The notes under the pieces are model-generated. The model was not told the DNA's origin and ran no database searches. It saw only the letters and a program-made list of their open reading frames with translations. A stretch of DNA of 64,000 nt, from positions 96,001 through 160,000 of IMG/VR virus record IMGVR_UViG_3300050821_001527. One strand, written 5' to 3'. A program made the position numbers and the translations under genes. Positions 13,124 through 60,823 of the stretch are shown here, in pieces. Positions within the stretch are counted from its first letter, which is position 1, and the number at the start of each line of letters is the position of its first letter. The DNA comes from a virus. Its lineage: Duplodnaviria; Caudoviricetes.

Positions 13124-13504
13124 TTACGCCTGCTGGTTTACTTCGACATTGACTCCCAATGCCTTCAAACGGCTGACGAGAGAATCAACTTCCGCGCTTG
13201 CGGCATCAGCGGCAGTCTTAACGGCTTGTTGGGCGGTTGCTTGAGCAGTCTGGATGGCATCCTTGGCCACCTGAACCGGCTGATACTTTTCCTGAAACTT
13301 GGTCAACTGGTGACTGGCAATGCCGATTAACAGCAGCTTCCAATTCGCCTGAGTCAAATCAGCCCCGCTGGATTCGATAGCCGCCTTCACTTGAGGGAAC
13401 AGCGCGGTCAAGGTCGTGAGCAAAGCAATAACACGGCCCATTGAAATGTTGCCTTCCCCGTCCCCAAGGCCAAGGGTGTGCAGAAAATTCTGGAGTGCTT
13501 TCAT
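13124..13504 (-). CDS. Holin-like membrane protein
   Basis: Two hydrophobic helices, ISMGRVIAL motif, GTGTAATA promoter 6 nt upstream. Confidence 0.5.
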   Translation of the reverse strand: MKALQNFLHTLGLGDGEGNISMGRVIALLTTLTALFPQVKAAIESSGADLTQANWKLLLIGIASHQLTKFQEKYQPVQVAKDAIQTAQATAQQAVKTAADAASAEVDSLVSRLKALGVNVEVNQQA

Positions 13505-13510
13505 ACCTTT

Positions 13511-13518
13511 TATTACAC
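13511..13518 (-). promoter_or_regulatory. Phage GTGTAATA promoter motif
   Basis: 6 nt upstream of ATG 13504. Confidence 0.65.
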
Positions 13519-13543
13519 TAAAAGTAAATAAAAATTCAATTTA

Positions 13544-13831
13544 ATGGGTCTATTAGGTATGGAACTTGATAAATCATCGGTGGCCGAGAAGGATATATTT
13601 AACACCTTGCTCGCGCTGAAAAGTGTGACGTTTTTGGAGGAAGAATCCGCAAAGCTTCTCCGAAAGATGGACAGGCTTGAAGTGAGGCGTTCACTGAGCC
13701 GAGATTATGCGGAAAGGGAGCGTCTCTTGGCGCAGATAGAATCCCACCTACCCCAGTTGAGAGTCCTCAAGGCCAGATGTGACGTGGAGTATAGAAATAT
13801 TACCAACCTGTCTCGCCGCAAGATACAATAG
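13544..13831 (+). CDS. Coiled-coil hypothetical protein
   Basis: ORF, operon position. Confidence 0.55.
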   Translation: MGLLGMELDKSSVAEKDIFNTLLALKSVTFLEEESAKLLRKMDRLEVRRSLSRDYAERERLLAQIESHLPQLRVLKARCDVEYRNITNLSRRKIQ

Positions 13832-13978
13832 TCGTGAAAGACTATATTCTGGTTCTTGAAAAGAAAAAGCGTTACCAATACGGAGCCTTCCCCCGCACGA
13901 AGGCCGGTAGGGAGAACGCGAAGAAATACGTGAAGAAGCTTAAAAAGGAACACAATATGGACTTCGTTTTGAAGTAAC

Positions 13979-14164
13979 ATGAAAGACCTTGACGACATTA
14001 TTGCCCTTTTGAACGACATCATTCTGGTAAGCCGCGTCCAAGATGCGAAGCTTGACCCCATGAGGCCGGGGGAGGGTTTCGTGACTTTTCATATCAAGCT
14101 GGTGCGAGACAGATTACAGGAGATGAACGCCGGTTCGGGCAATCAGGAGACGAAAACATGCTAA
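13979..14164 (+). CDS. Hypothetical protein
   Basis: ORF, operon position. Confidence 0.55.
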   Translation: MKDLDDIIALLNDIILVSRVQDAKLDPMRPGEGFVTFHIKLVRDRLQEMNAGSGNQETKTC

Positions 14165-14439
14165 CGGTTGGGGTAATCAGGGAGTTGAATTTCATGTCAG
14201 AGTTGACCAGCCTGCCGCTCAAGGCGGATTTGTGCCTTTCTGACGTTTTGTGCCTGACGGTCAATATATCGAATAAAATTCTGACCGTCCATCACGAAGG
14301 GGAACTCATTTGGGAGGAGTCCTTGGATGATGAATTTGGGAACTTTGGCATCGAATCCTGCCACCGTATCGCTCAAATTCTGCAAGCCAAACACTCCAAA
14401 AGTGACTATAAACACCTGATTTACAGAGAAAAATCTTGA
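14158..14439 (+). CDS. Hypothetical protein
   Basis: Overlaps previous stop. Confidence 0.5.
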   Translation: MLTVGVIRELNFMSELTSLPLKADLCLSDVLCLTVNISNKILTVHHEGELIWEESLDDEFGNFGIESCHRIAQILQAKHSKSDYKHLIYREKS

Positions 14440-14473
14440 CCGTAACGGAAAACTCGTATATGCTGGTATTACG

Positions 14474-15061
14474 ATGTCGTGTGAAAAAACTCTGATTGAA
14501 AGAATCCAGACTGGGAAAGATGAAAAAGCGTTTGAAGAACTTATGGAGTTACATAGGGAAAGAACGCTTGGCTCCATAAAAAGCCAATGCCGTTTCTCTC
14601 CGGTTGACCCAAATGAAGTCTGGAATATCGCGCTCGTCAAGGTCTGGAACTCAATCGGGGCTTTTCGAGGCGACAGCAAATTCAGCACATGGCTGTATCA
14701 TATTGTCCGAAACGTCATTTATAATGAGTGGGCCAAACTGAATCGAATTTCCCGCAACGAGGTTCATCTTGAAAATATTGACACTCAGACCAGCGAATTT
14801 TCCACGTCAGAAACCCCGTTGTCAACAATTTCCAAGGAGGAATTTCAAGCCGAACTGGGTAATAGAATTTGCGGGTTGAAAATGGAGTTGGGGGAAAAGC
14901 ACAGGAAGGTTTTTGAATTAGTGTTTGAACAGGGCAAGTCTTACTCCGAAGTCGCGCAGTTGCTTGATTGCCCGCGTGGAACCGTAATGAGTCGAGTCTT
15001 TGCTGTCAGGAGAAAACTCCAAGCCGCCCTTGAAAAATATGAACATATTACAGCTAACTAA
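14474..15061 (+). CDS. ECF-type sigma factor (RpoE-like)
   Basis: AFEELM, FRGDSKFSTWLY.I..N, GKSYSEVAQLLDCPRGTVMSR. Confidence 0.9.
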   Translation: MSCEKTLIERIQTGKDEKAFEELMELHRERTLGSIKSQCRFSPVDPNEVWNIALVKVWNSIGAFRGDSKFSTWLYHIVRNVIYNEWAKLNRISRNEVHLENIDTQTSEFSTSETPLSTISKEEFQAELGNRICGLKMELGEKHRKVFELVFEQGKSYSEVAQLLDCPRGTVMSRVFAVRRKLQAALEKYEHITAN

Positions 15062-53711: not shown

Positions 53712-54094
53712 GAGAGATAAGATTCCGCGTTTGGGACAAAAAGTATCAGCGATTCGTCAGCATCGAACCATTTGATACTGACCTGAACGACACGTTCGCC
53801 AACGACTCTTTCATCTTCCAGCAATGGACTGGCCTGCAAGACAGGAATGGCAAGGATATTTACGAAGGCGACATAGTTAGTGTCTATGACCCGGACAACA
53901 AGTTCGTGGTATCTTTTGGGAAAACGGAAAGGCAAGTTCTTTCCTATGATGGGCACACGATATTGCCCATTGAAATCGTTGGGTTCTATTTCAAGGCTCT
54001 GGATAACGGTCAGCCTTACTATAGCATCACCAATAATACCTTGGGCGAACACGACCTTAAAGGCACAATAGTCGTAGGACACGTTTTAAGCTAA
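53708..54094 (+). CDS. YopX-family protein
   Basis: MREIRFRVWD, QWTGLQDRNGKDIYEGDIV. Confidence 0.9.
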   Translation: MREIRFRVWDKKYQRFVSIEPFDTDLNDTFANDSFIFQQWTGLQDRNGKDIYEGDIVSVYDPDNKFVVSFGKTERQVLSYDGHTILPIEIVGFYFKALDNGQPYYSITNNTLGEHDLKGTIVVGHVLS

Positions 54095-54100
54095 CACAAT

Positions 54101-55192
54101 ATGAACAACACCGACCAAGAATACTTCCGTCTCCTGCGCCTTATCCTCGATAATGGCCGCACGAAAGTCAATCGAACCGGCGTGGATACCATCGGCGTTT
54201 TCGGCGCACAGGCGCGTTTCAATCTCGCCGAAGGCTTCCCACTTCTAACTACCAAGAAAGTCTTTCTCAAGGCCATCATCCACGAACTGCTCTGGTTCAT
54301 CAAGGGCGACACGAATATCAAGTATCTGGTTGATAACGACGTTCACATTTGGGACGAGTGGGCCTACAAGCGTTTCTGCGATGCTCAAAAAGGGACGGAC
54401 GGAGTTATTACGAAAGCCCTTATTGACCAAAAGCAATTCATTCAGAATATCAAGGAATTTCCTGAATTTGCCGCTAGATGGGGCGACCTTGGAGAAGGCA
54501 CCTACGGAGGCATGTGGAGGGCGTTTCCTTACTACCGCGAATACGATGACGGCGAGGATGGTTCCGACTGCGCTACTATACAACGCGCCCATGAAACGAT
54601 TGACCAACTCAAAAAAGTCGTGGATAAGCTGAAAACCAATCCCGATGACCGTCGCATGATTGTCAGCGCGTGGCATCCTTACTGGGTTGACCATTGTGCC
54701 CTACCGCCGTGTCATTGTCTTTTCCACTTCAACACGGAAGAACTAACCGTCTCTGAGCGACTGGACGTGTATCACAAGGGAGGCTACAACTTGCTTCCGA
54801 AGTATCTTGGCGCGGACGATGCCACGGCGCACAAGAATCTGGATGATATTGGCGTTCCCAAACGCAGGCTTAACTGCTTGCTCTATCAACGCTCCTGTGA
54901 CACGTTCTTAGGCGTTCCATTCAATATCGCCAGCTACGCGCTCTTGACGAGCATGATTGCCAAGGTGGTCAACATGGTTCCCGGCGAGTTTGTCCACACC
55001 TACGGCGACTTGCACATTTACAAGAACCATCTGGAACAGGTCAAGGAACAGCTTTCGCGCAAACCGTTCGACAAGCTTCCTACCTTGAAACTGAACCCCG
55101 CCGTCACCGATTTATTTCAATATAAATACGAGGACATTTCAGTCATGGGATATGAATGTCATCCCGCCATCAAAGCCCCCATCGCTGTCTAA
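54101..55192 (+). CDS. thyA: Thymidylate synthase
   Basis: [46 protein letters not shown]. Confidence 0.97.
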
Positions 55193-55193
55193 T

Positions 55194-55648
55194 ATGAAAA
55201 CCAACGAACGTAAAGACGCGGAAGAAATCGTCAGAAGGCTGCGCGAGCGCAATCCCGCAGCTTTCAATGGACTCATAGACGAGAACATTACATTGGAGGA
55301 CTTCGCTGAAATAGTCATTGTCCAATACAAGGCTTTCAACGCGGGAGCCAAAGAGTTGAGGCCCGACAAGAACGTAAAGGTTCCAGATTACGTTTGGTCA
55401 ACCGAAGGCTACGACCCAAGCAGATTGCCAAAATGAAATTCGACCACGAACATTGCGATAAGTGCGAGAAAGTAACCCCGCACTACAACGGGAAGTGCGG
55501 CCCCTGTGAAACGGCAGCGGGAAACAAGGCCCGCCGCCTGCACTTTGCTTCCCTAAAGGGCTTGACAGTTGAGGAAAGGCTTGATAGGATTGAAAAGTGG
55601 CAATACGAAATGCAAATCAGTCCCCCGTGGATTGAGCCAACCTACTAA
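55194..55648 (+). other. Two small hypothetical CDS (55194-55436; 55433-55648)
   Basis: Coupled ORFs. Confidence 0.5.
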
Positions 55649-55857
55649 ACCATGAACTACCGAAACGAAATACCTGCTGGAATCCCCCGAAATAAGACCG
55701 AACTGCGAGAAATGCAAGCCGCCCAAGTCAAGACCCCTCCGCTTACGGCTGGATTGGTTATTTTGGGTGCGGCGTTCGTCATTTTACTGGGCGTTTTGAC
55801 GATTATCCACATGGTTCGCTAATACGAATCAATAAAATTCAATAAATTGAAATAAAT

Positions 55858-56361
55858 ATGGCAACTTTTCGCGCAATCGTGGCAATGGGTGAAAATCGTG
55901 AAATCGGCGAGGGAGACAAGATTCCTTGGCGTCTCAAGGCCGATATGCAGCACTTTAAACGCACCACCATGAACGGCCATGTCCTTTTTGGCCGCAAGAC
56001 GTTTGATTGCCTGCCCAATAAGACCCTCGTAAACCGCACCATTTGGGTTCTGACGCGCCGTAACCCTGACGGATGGACTAAGACGACCAACCACGGTCTG
56101 ACGCTCTCCTGCGCCACCAACGTCGTGGAATCGCTATCCCAGCTTCCCGACGGACAGGACTATTGGGTTTGTGGAGGTTCTCAAATCTATTCCCTGCTCT
56201 TGGACAAGCTGGACGAGGTAGTCTGCACCCATGTTTCGGGTAAATTTTCCCAAGCGGACGCCCACATGTCTGCATTCGAGCATCTTTTCGCCCGAAAAGA
56301 CATCTTGACTACCGGCGAAGGATACAGTATCGTCAGGTATTATGATAAGATTACTGGTTAG
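55858..56361 (+). CDS. folA: Dihydrofolate reductase
   Basis: IG..IPW.L..DM.HFK..T, GRKTF, LP..R, GG.QIY. Confidence 0.93.
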   Translation: MATFRAIVAMGENREIGEGDKIPWRLKADMQHFKRTTMNGHVLFGRKTFDCLPNKTLVNRTIWVLTRRNPDGWTKTTNHGLTLSCATNVVESLSQLPDGQDYWVCGGSQIYSLLLDKLDEVVCTHVSGKFSQADAHMSAFEHLFARKDILTTGEGYSIVRYYDKITG

Positions 56362-56636
56362 AATTTTCTGCGCTTTAGTTTTTGGGAAGCAGCCCCATTT
56401 TCATACGTGGGGCAAATGGGAAACTGAATGCCGCAGCACTTGGTCAAGACAGCATCGCCAATGTCGCACCTGTGGCAAGGAACAATCTAGGATATTTTAA
56501 GTGTTGAAGATGGCCCTGCCGATGCCTTTGACGAAGAACCAAAGGTTATTCCAGCGCAGGACGAGAATGCTCAATAGGAAGCATTGAACATTGAGTAGCA
56601 AACTTTCGAGACGTTCGTTCACTTATTATATTACAC

Positions 56637-57227
56637 ATGGATGGCCTGAAAAACAGAACTGGTTGGCAGAATGCCAGCAGCCTCAAAGCTTCCGCGACTG
56701 AAAGCAGCTTCGCACAGGCCATGAGCGCGGCTTTCGTGGGAACGGATTTTCGTTTGAGGCATAAGCCAAGGGAGTTCCGAAACATCTATCTACAAATTCC
56801 CTTGGATGCAGCCATCGCCGCCTCCATTTATCAGCCGATTAAGCCTTACAAGCACGGTGTTATTCCCGACTATGCCATTGACAACATTGTCACTGGGAAA
56901 ACGCTCTACGTCGAAGTCAAACGTCAGGATGGCTGGGTGGAGGGAAAGACCAGTTCGGCAGGGAGAGGAAACGCCCATGAAAGGTCTTGTAAATTCTTTA
57001 CGCCCGGATTGCTGCAAATTTTAAGGGCCAAAGGGAAGCTGGATGATTCAGTTTTGCCGTTTTGGGCCGTATATCAGGGAGATATTGCGCGTGACCCGAA
57101 GCGTGTCCGTGAAATCCATTGCTGGTTCAGCGGGTATTCCAACCACTTCTTTCTGTGGCAGGACATAAATATCTCGCATCCTTTAGTTACCCATTTTCAA
57201 ACCAAACTGAAACAAATCCTCGAATGA
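56637..57227 (+). CDS. MunI-like type II restriction endonuclease
   Basis: PD..EVKRQDGWVEGK..SAGRGNAHERSCK.FTPGLL, PFW.V..GDI.RDPKRVREI as recalled for MunI. Confidence 0.85.
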   Translation: MDGLKNRTGWQNASSLKASATESSFAQAMSAAFVGTDFRLRHKPREFRNIYLQIPLDAAIAASIYQPIKPYKHGVIPDYAIDNIVTGKTLYVEVKRQDGWVEGKTSSAGRGNAHERSCKFFTPGLLQILRAKGKLDDSVLPFWAVYQGDIARDPKRVREIHCWFSGYSNHFFLWQDINISHPLVTHFQTKLKQILE

Positions 57228-58798
57228 ATCCCATCCCTCTAATCCCGTTCGACAAACCCGAGTGGCGCGTGGTCAAAGAAAAGCACGTCCGCTACAAGAT
57301 TGTCAACTACAAGAAATATTACCAGCGTTCGCCCGGAACACCGCGCAACGGCAAGACGATTTTCGTTTATGACTTCGGTGACGGGTTGAACGTCATTCGC
57401 ATGAGCTATTCCGCCTCCAAGGGTGCAACCGGAGTGGAATTCGCCCGCCAAGGAGCCGACACGTTTCGTTTGCGTGTCAGGAACGGCAGGCTGGTCATTT
57501 GGAAAACCCAACTTACCCCGGACAGGGGCCGCATCGTCCGCAATGTTTCCAACCGCATTGACGACCTGAAAAGAATTTTGCTGAACTTTGGCAATAAGAA
57601 TACCTATTCCAAACCTTTCCAGAAGCCTGAACCAAAGCCTAAGCAGGAACAGTCCGATGAAATCCCCCTGAGCCACAGAATCTCCGAGCTTATGGACAGT
57701 AGTAGCGACTGGCCAGAAGTTACGAAAACCCAAGTGCGTGTGATTAAGTCTGTAAACGCACGTCTGAACAAGATTTTGATTCACTTCCTCAAGCGTCACG
57801 GAATCAAGTTCAAATACGGCAGGGACTTCTTCGAGAATCTGCGTGTCGCCTGCTATCCCTTCACGGAAGGTTTCGCCCTCAAGAGCAATTCGCTCAACGC
57901 GGTTTACTCGCGCCATTTTATTCACGGGGACATTAAGCATGTAGTCAAGAAATGCTTCGGCACGGACGGCGGAAAGCTTACCCGCATGGTCTGCGAACGA
58001 ATCCGTAAAGACCAAAACTTCGATGTTCTGTGTCTAGGCGCGGTCATCAAGGGACTCATGCCCGTGGATTATGTCTATCAGGCTTTGGAGAAGGCCAACG
58101 TCACCAAAATCAAGGACGTTGACAAAAATCGAGTAGGCGTCAAATTGAACGTCGTCAGGGCATTACTCAAGAACTACAACGCCTCCCGCGTTTTGAAGCT
58201 CGTTCTCGACGAGAATTTCGGAGAATGGTATTTCAACGACTCCATCATCATTTACGGCCAGCGTAAAGCCGAGCCTGACTTCCAGATTATCGAAAAGCCG
58301 AAAAGCTGGCAGGAAATACACGACTATCTCGCGCCCCGCCGTCTAGCAGCTTCCGTCAAGACCGAAGAAATGGAACTGCCCGTCTCGCCGAAATACAAGG
58401 AGATAGACGGATTGGAATACGAAGGATTCAAGATAGAAGTCCCCAAGCACACGAACGACCTTGTTTCCTACGCCAACCAGATGCAGAACTGTATTCGCTG
58501 GTATGGCTCACAGGTAGTCGCCAAGCAATGCAACATCCTTGGTATCTACAAGGAGGATAAGCTGGTTTACAACATTTCGATTCGCAGCAAGGTCATTGAC
58601 CAGTTCAGGGGTAAGTGTAATTCCGAACCAGACCCGGAGGATAAGTCAAAGATTCTCAAGGCTCTCTTGGAGAAGGGAATCATTTCCTCGCTACCCGACG
58701 ACAGACGAGACTCTTTGGCTCTGGCCCGCGCAGTTATCGCCCCGCCCGTCCCGGTTCCCCTTGTAGTGGCAAACGACGACGGAGGCGTTCCATTCTAA
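57224..58798 (+). CDS. Large protein with C-terminal PcfJ-like domain
   Basis: P....DL..YA.QM.NCI..Y, I.QFRG..N. Confidence 0.75.
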   Translation: MNPIPLIPFDKPEWRVVKEKHVRYKIVNYKKYYQRSPGTPRNGKTIFVYDFGDGLNVIRMSYSASKGATGVEFARQGADTFRLRVRNGRLVIWKTQLTPDRGRIVRNVSNRIDDLKRILLNFGNKNTYSKPFQKPEPKPKQEQSDEIPLSHRISELMDSSSDWPEVTKTQVRVIKSVNARLNKILIHFLKRHGIKFKYGRDFFENLRVACYPFTEGFALKSNSLNAVYSRHFIHGDIKHVVKKCFGTDGGKLTRMVCERIRKDQNFDVLCLGAVIKGLMPVDYVYQALEKANVTKIKDVDKNRVGVKLNVVRALLKNYNASRVLKLVLDENFGEWYFNDSIIIYGQRKAEPDFQIIEKPKSWQEIHDYLAPRRLAASVKTEEMELPVSPKYKEIDGLEYEGFKIEVPKHTNDLVSYANQMQNCIRWYGSQVVAKQCNILGIYKEDKLVYNISIRSKVIDQFRGKCNSEPDPEDKSKILKALLEKGIISSLPDDRRDSLALARAVIAPPVPVPLVVANDDGGVPF

Positions 58799-59265
58799 TG
58801 CAAAACAAAACATTCGGTTTCCAAACCCAAATGGCGATAGGCGACAAGGGAGAGCAGGACTTCAAACAATACTACGCTCATCTAGGCCCGGTCAAAAGCG
58901 AGGATAGGGCGATTGACTTCATTCTGGCCGATGGCACGACTGTCGAACTAAAATCCGACAGCTACCCGATGGAAAAGACCGAGAACTTTTTCATGGAAAC
59001 TTTGAGCGATACCAAGTCCGGCAAGCTTGGGGGTGTCTTTAGGGCAAGGAATGATAAAATTCATTTTTTTGTATATTATTACCCCGCCAACAAGACGTTC
59101 TTCTGGTTCGAGGTTGAAAAACTTTGTGCCGAAGTCGAAAGGCTGATTGGCACCGGAAAATACAGGGTCAAGTCCATCAAAAACAGGTCATGGACTACCG
59201 AGGGTTACGCCCTGTCCCGCAGCCTGTTCGAGAAGGTCATGCTGAGAAAAGACGTTTTTCCTTGA
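58798..59265 (+). CDS. PD-(D/E)XK nuclease-like protein
   Basis: GE..F, DF...VELKSD, N.F.E. Confidence 0.6.
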   Translation: MQNKTFGFQTQMAIGDKGEQDFKQYYAHLGPVKSEDRAIDFILADGTTVELKSDSYPMEKTENFFMETLSDTKSGKLGGVFRARNDKIHFFVYYYPANKTFFWFEVEKLCAEVERLIGTGKYRVKSIKNRSWTTEGYALSRSLFEKVMLRKDVFP

Positions 59266-59296
59266 CTTTAGGCGTAAATACTGTCAATATCAGTAA

Positions 59297-60466
59297 ATGA
59301 AAATCTACGCCGAAAACACTCGCGTCCCAATCAAGTCTTGGTGTGAAAACCCGGAAGCCGGGGCTATCAAGCAGGCCGAGAACATGGCCAACCTGCCATT
59401 CACTTTCAGACACGTCGCCCTCATGCCCGACACCCATCAAGGCTTTGGTATGCCTATCGGTGGAGTTCTGGCTACCGATAACGTCATCATTCCGAACGCT
59501 GTCGGAGTTGACATTGGGTGCGGTATGTGTTCCATCGAATCCAACATCCAAACTTGGGACAGGGAACTGTTGACGGAAGCCATCAAGGAAATCCGCTACA
59601 ACGTTCCTGTCGGATTCAGCCGCCATCTTACCGCGAAGCCTGTGGACAAGCTGCCCGCCAGCACGTCCCCGAACGCCTACTATGAGAAGTTCCTTGAGCC
59701 GTCCCTGTTCCAACTCGGAACCTTGGGCGGCGGGAATCACTTCATCGAATTACAGAAGAACCCGAACGGAAATCTGTGCGTGATGATTCACTCTGGTAGC
59801 CGCAACATCGGGAAGCAGGTTGCCGACTATTACAACAAGCTCGCCCTCGCTCTGAACCAGCGTTATTTCAGTCAGGTCACGAAGGAAACCGACTTGGCGT
59901 TCCTGCCGCTTGACTCTGCCGAGGGTCAGGCTTACTTGGCGGAAATGACTTACTGTGTCGCGTTTGCCTTGGCGAACCGCATGGAAATGATGAACGCTTG
60001 CCAGCAAGCCATCTACAAGGTTTTCAAGCCTTTGCAACAGGTCGAGTTCACGAACTTCATCAACATTCCGCACAATTATGCGAAGGTTGAAAAGCACTTC
60101 GGCAAGGAAGTCGTCGTCCACCGCAAGGGCGCGACGAATGCCAGCGAGGGCGTCATTGGGCTAATCCCCGGCTCGCAGGGCACCAAGAGCTACGTGGTGC
60201 GCGGCAAGGGTAATCGTGAGAGCTTCGAGAGTTGCTCCCACGGCGCAGGCCGCAAGATGGGCCGCATGGTCGCCAAACGCACTCTGAACATCGAAGACGA
60301 GCAACGCAAGCTGGACGAACTTGGAGTCATTCATGCCGTCCGCGCCAACTCTGACTTGGACGAGGCTCCGGGTTCCTATAAGGACATTGACGTGGTTATG
60401 AGCGAGCAAACCGACCTGATTGACGTTATCGAAGAACGCACTCCTTTGGGAGTCGTGAAGGGGTAA
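59297..60466 (+). CDS. rtcB: RtcB RNA 3'-phosphate/5'-OH ligase
   Basis: MPDTH.G.G.PIG, GVDIGCG, GTLGGGNHFIE, HSGSR, HN, HRKGA, SHGAGR, DEAP.SYK. Confidence 0.97.
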   Translation: MKIYAENTRVPIKSWCENPEAGAIKQAENMANLPFTFRHVALMPDTHQGFGMPIGGVLATDNVIIPNAVGVDIGCGMCSIESNIQTWDRELLTEAIKEIRYNVPVGFSRHLTAKPVDKLPASTSPNAYYEKFLEPSLFQLGTLGGGNHFIELQKNPNGNLCVMIHSGSRNIGKQVADYYNKLALALNQRYFSQVTKETDLAFLPLDSAEGQAYLAEMTYCVAFALANRMEMMNACQQAIYKVFKPLQQVEFTNFINIPHNYAKVEKHFGKEVVVHRKGATNASEGVIGLIPGSQGTKSYVVRGKGNRESFESCSHGAGRKMGRMVAKRTLNIEDEQRKLDELGVIHAVRANSDLDEAPGSYKDIDVVMSEQTDLIDVIEERTPLGVVKG

Positions 60467-60823
60467 GGGGGCTATCCCCCATTTACGTTATGGGCTAATC
60501 GTGCTATGATGGAGTATGAAGTCAAAAATGAAAAAATTAGTCCATCAATGTTCAGCCGCAATATACGCGGCGACCAGCATTAAACCCGAGTTCACTGAAC
60601 TTGGGGAGTTCGTGTTATGGCAAATCGCGGTGGGTGTCGGCGATAAGGAGTCTTATCTCGACGCCCCGCGACCATGCCACAAAGACAGATAAATATGAGC
60701 AGACGATACAAGCAAGACGACGATACGACCCTGATGGGGATTGGGATGTTTTTCTTGTTCGTGGTTATCTCCTGAGTAGAAACCCTTGACACCAACCGAA
60801 AGCTGGGCTATTATTATAGAACG

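Follow-up and report, generated by a model that had tools for sequence, protein, structure and literature searches.

A solitary MunI-family restriction endonuclease gene in a soil phage genome devoid of CAATTG sites

A restriction enzyme that lacks its partner methylase is normally lethal to its owner. Phage nucleases that destroy host DNA include endonuclease II (denA) and endonuclease IV of T4; the T4 denA gene presumably adjoins the nucleotide-metabolism genes nrdB, td and frd. Restriction enzymes of chloroviruses are thought to degrade host DNA (PMC7019647), and solitary restriction-enzyme genes have been counted in phages (12 in 831; Oliveira et al., 2014; PMC4176335). The elimination of type II sites is an anti-restriction strategy of phages (Rusinov et al., 2018; PMC6286503). 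In Pseudomonas alcaligenes, the solitary restriction enzyme PacI resides in a host genome that is without its site, as cited by Ershova et al. (2012; PMC3488263). Here we analyze a stretch of 64,000 nucleotides (positions 96,001 to 160,000 of the IMG/VR virus record IMGVR_UViG_3300050821_001527), hereafter the window, in which a gene of an uncultured soil phage encodes a homologue of R.MunI and R.MfeI (recognition site CAATTG; crystal structure 1D02; family PF11407). The phage enzyme has the same length, fold, catalytic motif and loop as these described enzymes. The gene is located as follows.

56637..57227, + strand: solitary gene for a MunI-family type IIP restriction endonuclease (196 amino acids, aa)

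As judged from its sequence, this open reading frame (ORF) encodes an intact, full-length MunI-family type IIP endonuclease. Its 196-aa product matches PF11407 (RestrictionMunI) with an expectation value (E) of 2.6e-61 and 207.2 bits (cut-off 25) over profile positions 8-192 of 193, and it aligns with the MunI crystal chain 1d02 (E 1.4e-57) such that phage residues 4-195 correspond to residues 6-201 of 1d02. These two alignments bear out the near full-length resemblance to MunI that a first-pass annotation of this DNA, made by eye from the letters, had claimed. The PADLOC model REase_II matches the protein as well (E 6.5e-60). When an AlphaFold2 model of the phage enzyme (predicted local distance difference test score, pLDDT, 82.7) was compared with the Protein Data Bank (PDB), by far the best matches were 1d02_B (E 4.6e-21) and 1d02_A (E 1.2e-20), with template-modeling scores of 0.74-0.77.

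The catalytic PD...ExK motif is intact: P77-D78, E93 and K95 of the phage enzyme align with D83, E98 and K100 of MunI in the 1d02 alignment, a catalytic numbering that we take to be that of Deibert et al. (1999). The 1d02 chain carries an alanine at position 83, consistent with its being the D83A crystal mutant. To assess conservation within the family, we used an alignment of 32 sequences that comprises the phage protein, 27 of its closest database homologues and four homologues from viral contigs. P77-D78, E93 and K95 are invariant in it. The recognition loop of the phage enzyme, G109-R116 (GRGNAHER), is identical to MunI residues 114-121; in the alignment, every loop residue except A113 is invariant (seven of eight), and A113 is nearly so. 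This loop presumably reads CAATTG. The stretch AGRGNAHERSCK, which contains the DNA-reading loop, is identical between the phage enzyme and MunI, and MunI and the 31 homologues share the same or almost the same residues with it all the way from ExK to the loop (KRQDGWVEGK...AGRGNAHERSCK.FTPGLL).

All 53 invariant columns of the family are retained in the phage enzyme (53/53). Its departures from the consensus shared by at least 90% of the sequences are the conservative substitutions G15S, A21T, F146Y and L194I and the absence of a glycine after Met1. Among 5.8 billion proteins, 2462 homologues were recovered at E <= 1e-5; the phage enzyme forms an isolated branch with 57-65% identity to every homologue (mean ~61%). 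A tblastn search of the enzyme against the phage collection yielded a single partial match at a contig end (MT836404.1). Family membership and the predicted CAATTG specificity are well supported, and the endonuclease is probably active, in which case it would cut CAATTG as a homodimer.

The hexamer CAATTG does not occur in the window. Its expected number there is 16.2 from base composition, 26.0 from an order-1, 31.4 from an order-2 and 13.4 from a maximal-order Markov model, and 25.7 +/- 4.9 from dinucleotide shuffles. The half-sites CAATT[ACT] and [AGT]AATTG are present in 82 and 54 copies, respectively. Exact counting hence upholds two statements that the first-pass annotation had made by eye, zero CAATTG and half-sites by the dozen; its figure of about 15 expected sites stands as a zero-order value, while the other models for the window span 13.4-31.4. 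CAATTG is likewise absent from the whole 202,882-bp record and from a 164-bp junction that joins the ends of this record in other assemblies. Against these zero copies, 45 (maximal-order Markov) to 106 (order 2) would be expected genome-wide, so that the exact count and the Markov ratio extend the by-eye observation to the entire genome. The half-sites CAATT and AATTG occur in 272 and 175 copies in the genome.

When codons were permuted within each gene, a null model that preserves every protein and the per-gene codon usage, 44.4 +/- 5.9 CAATTG sites were expected in the genome, and none of the 200 synonymous-codon shuffles contained fewer than 28. The 155 glutamine-leucine pairs illustrate the point: CAA-TTG is never used (19.5 expected), CAG-TTG is used 39 times, and CAA is combined 70 times with other leucine codons. 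In the two remaining reading frames, no CAATTG was found where 15.9 and 11.0 copies were expected. The loss of CAATTG was achieved via synonymous codon choice.

No partner methylase was detected for the enzyme. A six-frame search of the genome for the DNA methylase families PF01555 (N6_N4_Mtase), PF02384 (N6_Mtase), PF00145 (C5), PF02086 (D12 class) and PF05063 (MT-A70) found none, the last even at E <= 1. Hence, a cognate methyltransferase elsewhere in the genome, which the first-pass annotation had raised as a point against its reading, was found in none of these five families. Likewise, neither a DNA methylase nor another restriction-enzyme family came to light when 138 ORFs with a length of 110 aa or more were scanned against Pfam, or among the local labels, and the modification genes PurZ and those of the DpdA type were not found in the genome. 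The record is labeled linear and was rated by CheckV as 91% complete; its right end is joined to its left end via 164 bp in three other assemblies (L089:9805-9968). The genome is closed at ~203,046 bp, either circularly permuted or circular in assembly, and therefore no methylase is hidden in a missing part. The 164-bp junction represents the end of a gene for a RuvB-WHD-like protein of 322 aa.

MT-A70 is the relevant methylase family because every comparison locus (6/6) has it beside the gene for the MunI homologue, namely the viral contigs L001-L004 and the database homologues L060 and L061. The latter two enzymes (63% and 65% identical to the phage enzyme) belong to cellular MunI-type systems, with an HTH_3 controller upstream and the MT-A70 methylase downstream. 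CAATTG was observed versus expected 2/2.0 times in L001, 8/11.5 times in L002, 4/4.4 times in L003 and 3/9.3 times in L004. The product of L001:1058-1666 (IMG/VR), which has the MT-A70 gene alongside, appears by eye nearly identical to the 1d02 MunI chain, and L001 may be Mycoplasma-derived DNA and not viral.

CAATTG is not the only recognition site missing from this phage. Of the 64 palindromic hexamers, 45 are present at zero copies in 203 kb, CAATTG among them, and further type II sites, several type IIS words included, are absent or nearly so. The counts for the whole genome, observed/expected, are listed below.

GATC: 0/599
GTAC: 1/447
CCWGG: 1/414
GGWCC: 0/441
GTMKAC: 0/124
RGGNCCY: 0/180
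CCTNAGG: 0/32
GCTNAGC: 0/33
GGTCTC: 0/79
CTCTTC: 2/115
CACGAG: 1/60

Close counterparts of these words are spared, as seen for CCSGG (370/430) and CGTCTC (73/87), and GTYRAC is found near expectation except for its two palindromic members. The palindromes TAATTA, TAGCTA, TATATA, ATATAT, AAATTT and TTGCAA are all retained; we know of no enzyme that recognizes them. Such a pattern is what selection exerted by many type II systems leaves behind. A structural avoidance of palindromes was considered and rejected, since these palindromes without an enzyme known to us are kept and CCWGG differs sharply from CCSGG, as does GGTCTC from CGTCTC. We also rejected the idea that further solitary restriction enzymes of the phage purged the other 44 words, since no other such family is present in the 138 ORFs of at least 110 aa; the nuclease families found in them are HNH and PDDEXK_1 only, with the limit that Pfam covers restriction enzymes incompletely.

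Because the purged words carry the signature of many type II systems, the lack of CAATTG, taken by itself, is no ground for naming the enzyme of the phage as its cause, and host restriction pressure is enough to explain it. The proposal of the first-pass annotation that the phage protects itself by avoiding CAATTG hence holds in one part, the genome being free of the site, and is not supported as an adaptation specific to this enzyme, since 44 other hexamers are gone without a matching enzyme. Of the three findings that the annotation had named as contrary to its reading (CAATTG at the expected frequency, a cognate methylase elsewhere, another specificity), none was made. The purge follows known enzyme specificities and implies exceptionally diverse host restriction systems. 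It also makes this phage genome a natural DNA that most commercial six-cutters would leave uncut.

To place the gene in its phage clade, we searched for relatives by several routes. No MunI homologue was found in 51 ThyA-related viral loci, in 32 whole viral records or in 19 terminase relatives. The 51 ThyA relatives show no synteny around the endonuclease gene and a very different content of guanine plus cytosine (GC); CAATTG is present in all five of the whole records of these distant relatives in which it was counted. The terminase relatives display only mild site avoidance. A megablast search with positions 54000-60500 against the phage collection gave no match, and a PcfJ-based search of IMG/VR gave no relatives. 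Closer, syntenic relatives were reached via RtcB together with PcfJ (RtcB 70-74% identical). The gene order shared with them is Metallophos - cREC_REC - Metallophos - thymidylate synthase - RtcB - dGTP diphosphohydrolase - dCMP deaminase - dUTPase, and in L092 the PcfJ-RtcB synteny is found without MunI. None of the five syntenic relatives carries MunI within the 10-21 kb available for each. Their observed/expected counts for the 45 words forbidden in our phage, followed by those for CAATTG, are as follows.

L092: 45 words 9/80; CAATTG 2/7.0
L093: 45 words 36/164; CAATTG 13/16.4
L094: 45 words 16/117; CAATTG 10/10.6
L096: 45 words 2/157; CAATTG 0/13.0 (no MunI in the syntenic 21 kb)
L097: 45 words 42/169; CAATTG 4/11.3

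The clade-wide purge is probably older than the endonuclease gene, because these relatives, whose syntenic stretches are without MunI, have it too. Within the purged set CAATTG varies: two relatives keep it at about the expected level, two others have fewer copies, and L096 has none. Since L096 is at zero without MunI in its syntenic region, and since MunI-type systems are common, CAATTG can be purged by outside pressure alone.

Two side observations concern individual relatives. L095 (RtcB 70% identical) carries an adenylosuccinate-synthetase-like gene of the PurZ type at 13292-14590, near RtcB; its site avoidance is much weaker (45 words 54/166, GATC 47/68), which fits a base substitution that replaces site avoidance. 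L096, in which the purge goes furthest, is densely packed with genes for free-standing nucleases (PDDEXK_5, Endonuclease_7, HNH, GIY-YIG and LAGLIDADG-like), located as follows.

L096, 17-1323, 3081-3566, 8286-9026 and 14324-15205: free-standing nuclease genes

The surroundings of the endonuclease gene in the window contain these features.

54101..55192, + strand: thymidylate synthase ThyA, 363 aa (PF00303), part of a nucleotide-metabolism module
55858..56361, + strand: dihydrofolate reductase (DHFR), the last gene upstream with a Pfam assignment (PF00186, E 8.7e-31)
56342-56500: 52-aa ORF between the DHFR and endonuclease genes, from the program-made ORF list, absent from the gene calls and outside the Pfam scan
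56501..56636, + strand: A/T-rich leader of 136 bp before the endonuclease gene, without a Shine-Dalgarno sequence
57224..58798, + strand: PcfJ-like gene, 524 aa (PF14284, E 5.1e-11; gene calls in four other assemblies)
58831..59265, + strand: 144-aa ORF whose translation has a D...ExK-like pattern (AIDFIL ... VELKS)
59297..60466, + strand: RtcB RNA ligase (PF01139), by which syntenic relatives were located

No methyltransferase gene flanks the endonuclease gene on either side; the Pfam labels, DHFR upstream and PcfJ-like downstream, bear out this statement of the first-pass annotation. No gene for a helix-turn-helix (HTH) controller is present upstream of the endonuclease gene, where only DHFR, the 52-aa ORF and the 136-bp leader are found. 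A complete MunI-type system of controller, endonuclease and methylase is hence not present; the methylase and the controller are lacking. The start codon of the PcfJ-like gene overlaps the stop codon of the endonuclease gene (ATGA at 57224-57227), and the two genes are therefore probably co-transcribed and translationally coupled. The block around the endonuclease gene encodes ThyA, DHFR, a dGTP diphosphohydrolase, a dUTPase/dCTP deaminase, a dCMP deaminase and ribonucleotide reductase (RNR). A scan for promoters and terminators around the endonuclease gene gave nothing above the level of shuffled sequences.

Several further observations were made on these neighbors. A Shine-Dalgarno-like 4-mer precedes 23% of the phage genes versus 18% in the background (25 nt before 208 genes); A/T-rich leaders without such a sequence are typical of this phage and might, speculatively, hint at a host with initiation independent of it, e.g., a member of the Bacteroidota. 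ThyA and DHFR (54101-56361) are found here, and ThyX (Thy1) in the syntenic relatives L092, L093, L094 and L097. This swap is a non-orthologous replacement, in a variable slot that also holds the MunI and PcfJ genes. The 144-aa ORF at 58831-59265 is a member of a large family found almost exclusively in viruses and is possibly a PD-(D/E)xK nuclease. Its atlas neighbors are viral clusters, one of which has NOV_C, a domain with a restriction-endonuclease-like fold, in 18% of its members, a weak lead; the ORF had no Pfam or PDB sequence match, and no link to the endonuclease was seen.

The endonuclease gene itself bears the marks of the phage. It contains none of the forbidden words, whereas 9.8 +/- 2.9 were expected from random back-translation of its protein with the codon usage of the phage, and zero was reached in 0/5000 back-translations; six homologous genes contain 3-9 forbidden words each. 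Its codon score (0.133 per codon) lies inside the interquartile range of the phage, and its GC content is 49.1% versus 49.7%. Because of the zero forbidden words, the phage-like codon use and the isolated branch, we conclude that the gene has resided for long in this phage lineage; together with the intact conserved positions, this argues for purifying selection. The gene and its context were found at an identity of at least 99.97% in at least four samples. In one soil metatranscriptome, 100%-identical contigs cover positions 56397-56771 and 56809-56959, a weak indication of expression given possible DNA carry-over. A second RNA library has contigs over neighboring genes; positions 56971-58038, which comprise the 3' end of the endonuclease gene and the beginning of the PcfJ-like gene, are uncovered in either run, which is not evidence of absence.

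We consider it rather likely, on balance, that a methylase-less MunI enzyme is tolerated in a site-free genome, that the site is absent owing to a host-driven, clade-wide purge and that host DNA is the likeliest target. The enzyme would be harmless to the phage without a methylase because the genome has no CAATTG. According to this reading, host restriction systems would drive the unusually broad, clade-wide loss of type II sites via synonymous codons. In the simplest history, the site would have been lost first, and a bare endonuclease gene would then have been harmless to carry; the order may also have been the reverse, with the gene acquired together with a methylase, followed by the purge and then by loss of the methylase. 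With no self-targets, the enzyme could be expressed freely in the infected cell, where any unmethylated DNA bearing CAATTG would be cut. The host chromosome would be the likeliest target, serving host shut-off and the feeding of the nucleotide genes (ThyA, DHFR, dUTPase, dCMP deaminase, RNR), and co-infecting phages and plasmids might be attacked as well. Fragmentation of the host chromosome for shut-off or recycling would fit because the nuclease spares the phage genome and is placed among nucleotide-supply genes. Expression during infection and the nature of the target DNA are inferences, as are catalytic activity and CAATTG specificity; offensive use against host or rival DNA appears most likely.

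A number of points weigh against this reading. Among the relatives searched, the endonuclease gene was found in this phage only; because it is unique, it does not belong to what the clade conserves for its life cycle, and an estimate of the ratio of nonsynonymous to synonymous substitution rates (dN/dS) is not possible. A harmless gene could persist for some time under little selection in a site-free genome. The cover in the RNA libraries is low and patchy and could be DNA. Finally, a host with a MunI-type system of its own would methylate CAATTG, and its chromosome would be immune.

Other explanations have to be weighed against these data. The phage's own enzyme may have caused the purge of CAATTG, the gene having been acquired, perhaps with a methylase, self-cutting having selected against the site and the methylase having been lost later. 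We regard this as rather unlikely, although CAATTG occurs at the expected frequency in the syntenic stretches of two close MunI-less relatives (L093 13/16.4, L094 10/10.6), accounts for 10 of the 16 residual forbidden palindromes in L094, is found in all five whole ThyA-relative records tested, and viral contigs with both the endonuclease and the methylase gene do exist (L001-L004). What speaks against this cause is that the phage purged a further 44 palindromic hexamers, along with many more sites, without a matching enzyme, that TCATGA, TCGCGA, GTTAAC, CCATGG and CTTAAG were, like CAATTG, purged beyond the level in its kin with no matching enzyme present, and that L096 has 0 versus 13.0 CAATTG without MunI in 21 kb, with partial depletion in L092 (2/7.0) and L097 (4/11.3). 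That the gene is a harmless passenger, captured without a role, with nothing to cut, unexpressed or inactive, we consider unlikely. Its restriction to a single lineage, its lack of toxicity in a site-free genome, the failure to recognize a promoter, and the unexpressed or inactive solitary enzymes discussed by Ershova et al. (PMC3488263) would all be in keeping with a passenger. However, the ORF is intact and retains every family-invariant residue (53/53), although the protein sits on an isolated branch (57-65% identity); some ten forbidden words purged from the gene and its codon adaptation imply a long residence, over which a gene free of selection would be expected to decay, and the translational coupling to the next gene and, weakly, the RNA-library contigs over the gene point the same way.

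By the same mechanism, rival DNA could be the real target instead of the host chromosome, such that the enzyme would exclude co- or superinfecting phages, prophages or plasmids with unmethylated CAATTG. CAATTG is indeed present in relatives that are likely competitors for a common host, and virus-excluding viral restriction enzymes have been described, such as HHPV4I (PMC10101028). We nevertheless judge this somewhat doubtful, given that the gene lies in a nucleotide-metabolism block and not among early or exclusion genes, and that exclusion by chloroviruses, when tested, was not due to their restriction enzymes (PMC7019647). A changed specificity or function, e.g., that of a nickase, a DNA-binding regulator or a repair or recombination nuclease, would make the missing CAATTG irrelevant. 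The isolated branch (mean identity ~61%) and the kinship of the family to EcoRI and MluCI, whose sites differ (PMC4081073), leave some room for such a change, which is very improbable considering that the segment from ExK to the loop is identical or nearly so to MunI and the 31 homologues and that the few departures from the consensus are conservative. To a hidden protection of the phage DNA, by an unrecognized methyltransferase, a host methylase or base hypermodification, with the site absence being incidental, we give hardly any credence. Many ORFs do lack a family assignment, and proteins resembling nucleoside 2-deoxyribosyltransferase and dGTP/dATP diphosphohydrolase are encoded; yet with zero CAATTG no site needs protection, a purge so nearly total and so site-specific is itself an argument that type II enzymes do reach the DNA, known DNA methylase families, PurZ and DpdA were not found in the genome, and ThyA, DHFR and dCMP deaminase point to ordinary thymidine synthesis.

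If the favored explanation of a tolerated enzyme aimed at host DNA is true, self and non-self would be discriminated purely by sequence composition, and a classical host defense would have been turned into a phage weapon. As a tentative extension, possible but short of probable, a purged genome may let the phage take up bare restriction genes as weapons, and the MunI enzyme would then be an active offensive nuclease under selection that breaks up both host and rival DNA and locks CAATTG out. In comparison with the MunI system, the phage enzyme is without the MT-A70 methylase and without the HTH controller, and its carrier is a large, lytic-type soil phage. The solitary phage genes surveyed by Oliveira et al. 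were counted only, without study of site content, integrity or function. Relative to the avoidance cases of Rusinov et al., the extent of the purge differs here, and a comparably complete case was not found in a non-exhaustive literature search. The likeness to PacI lies in a type II enzyme without a methylase that is made safe by the total absence of its site from the encoding genome. PacI, however, belongs to the HNH enzymes, recognizes 8 bp and is encoded on a bacterial chromosome, whereas the phage enzyme is of the PD-(D/E)xK type with a 6-bp site for which 44-106 copies are expected; unlike with PacI, the site absence in the phage is part of a general purge. Like the nucleases of the chloroviruses and T4, the phage enzyme would be a viral sequence-specific nuclease that spares its own genome and may be able to fragment host DNA. 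Chloroviruses and T4 are protected by methylation through an adjacent methylase or by hydroxymethylcytosine, whereas this phage, in whose genome no modification genes were found, would be protected by the absence of the site. Should the phage indeed use bare restriction genes as weapons, this would represent a third viral strategy for distinguishing self from non-self by a nuclease, beside methylation and base replacement.

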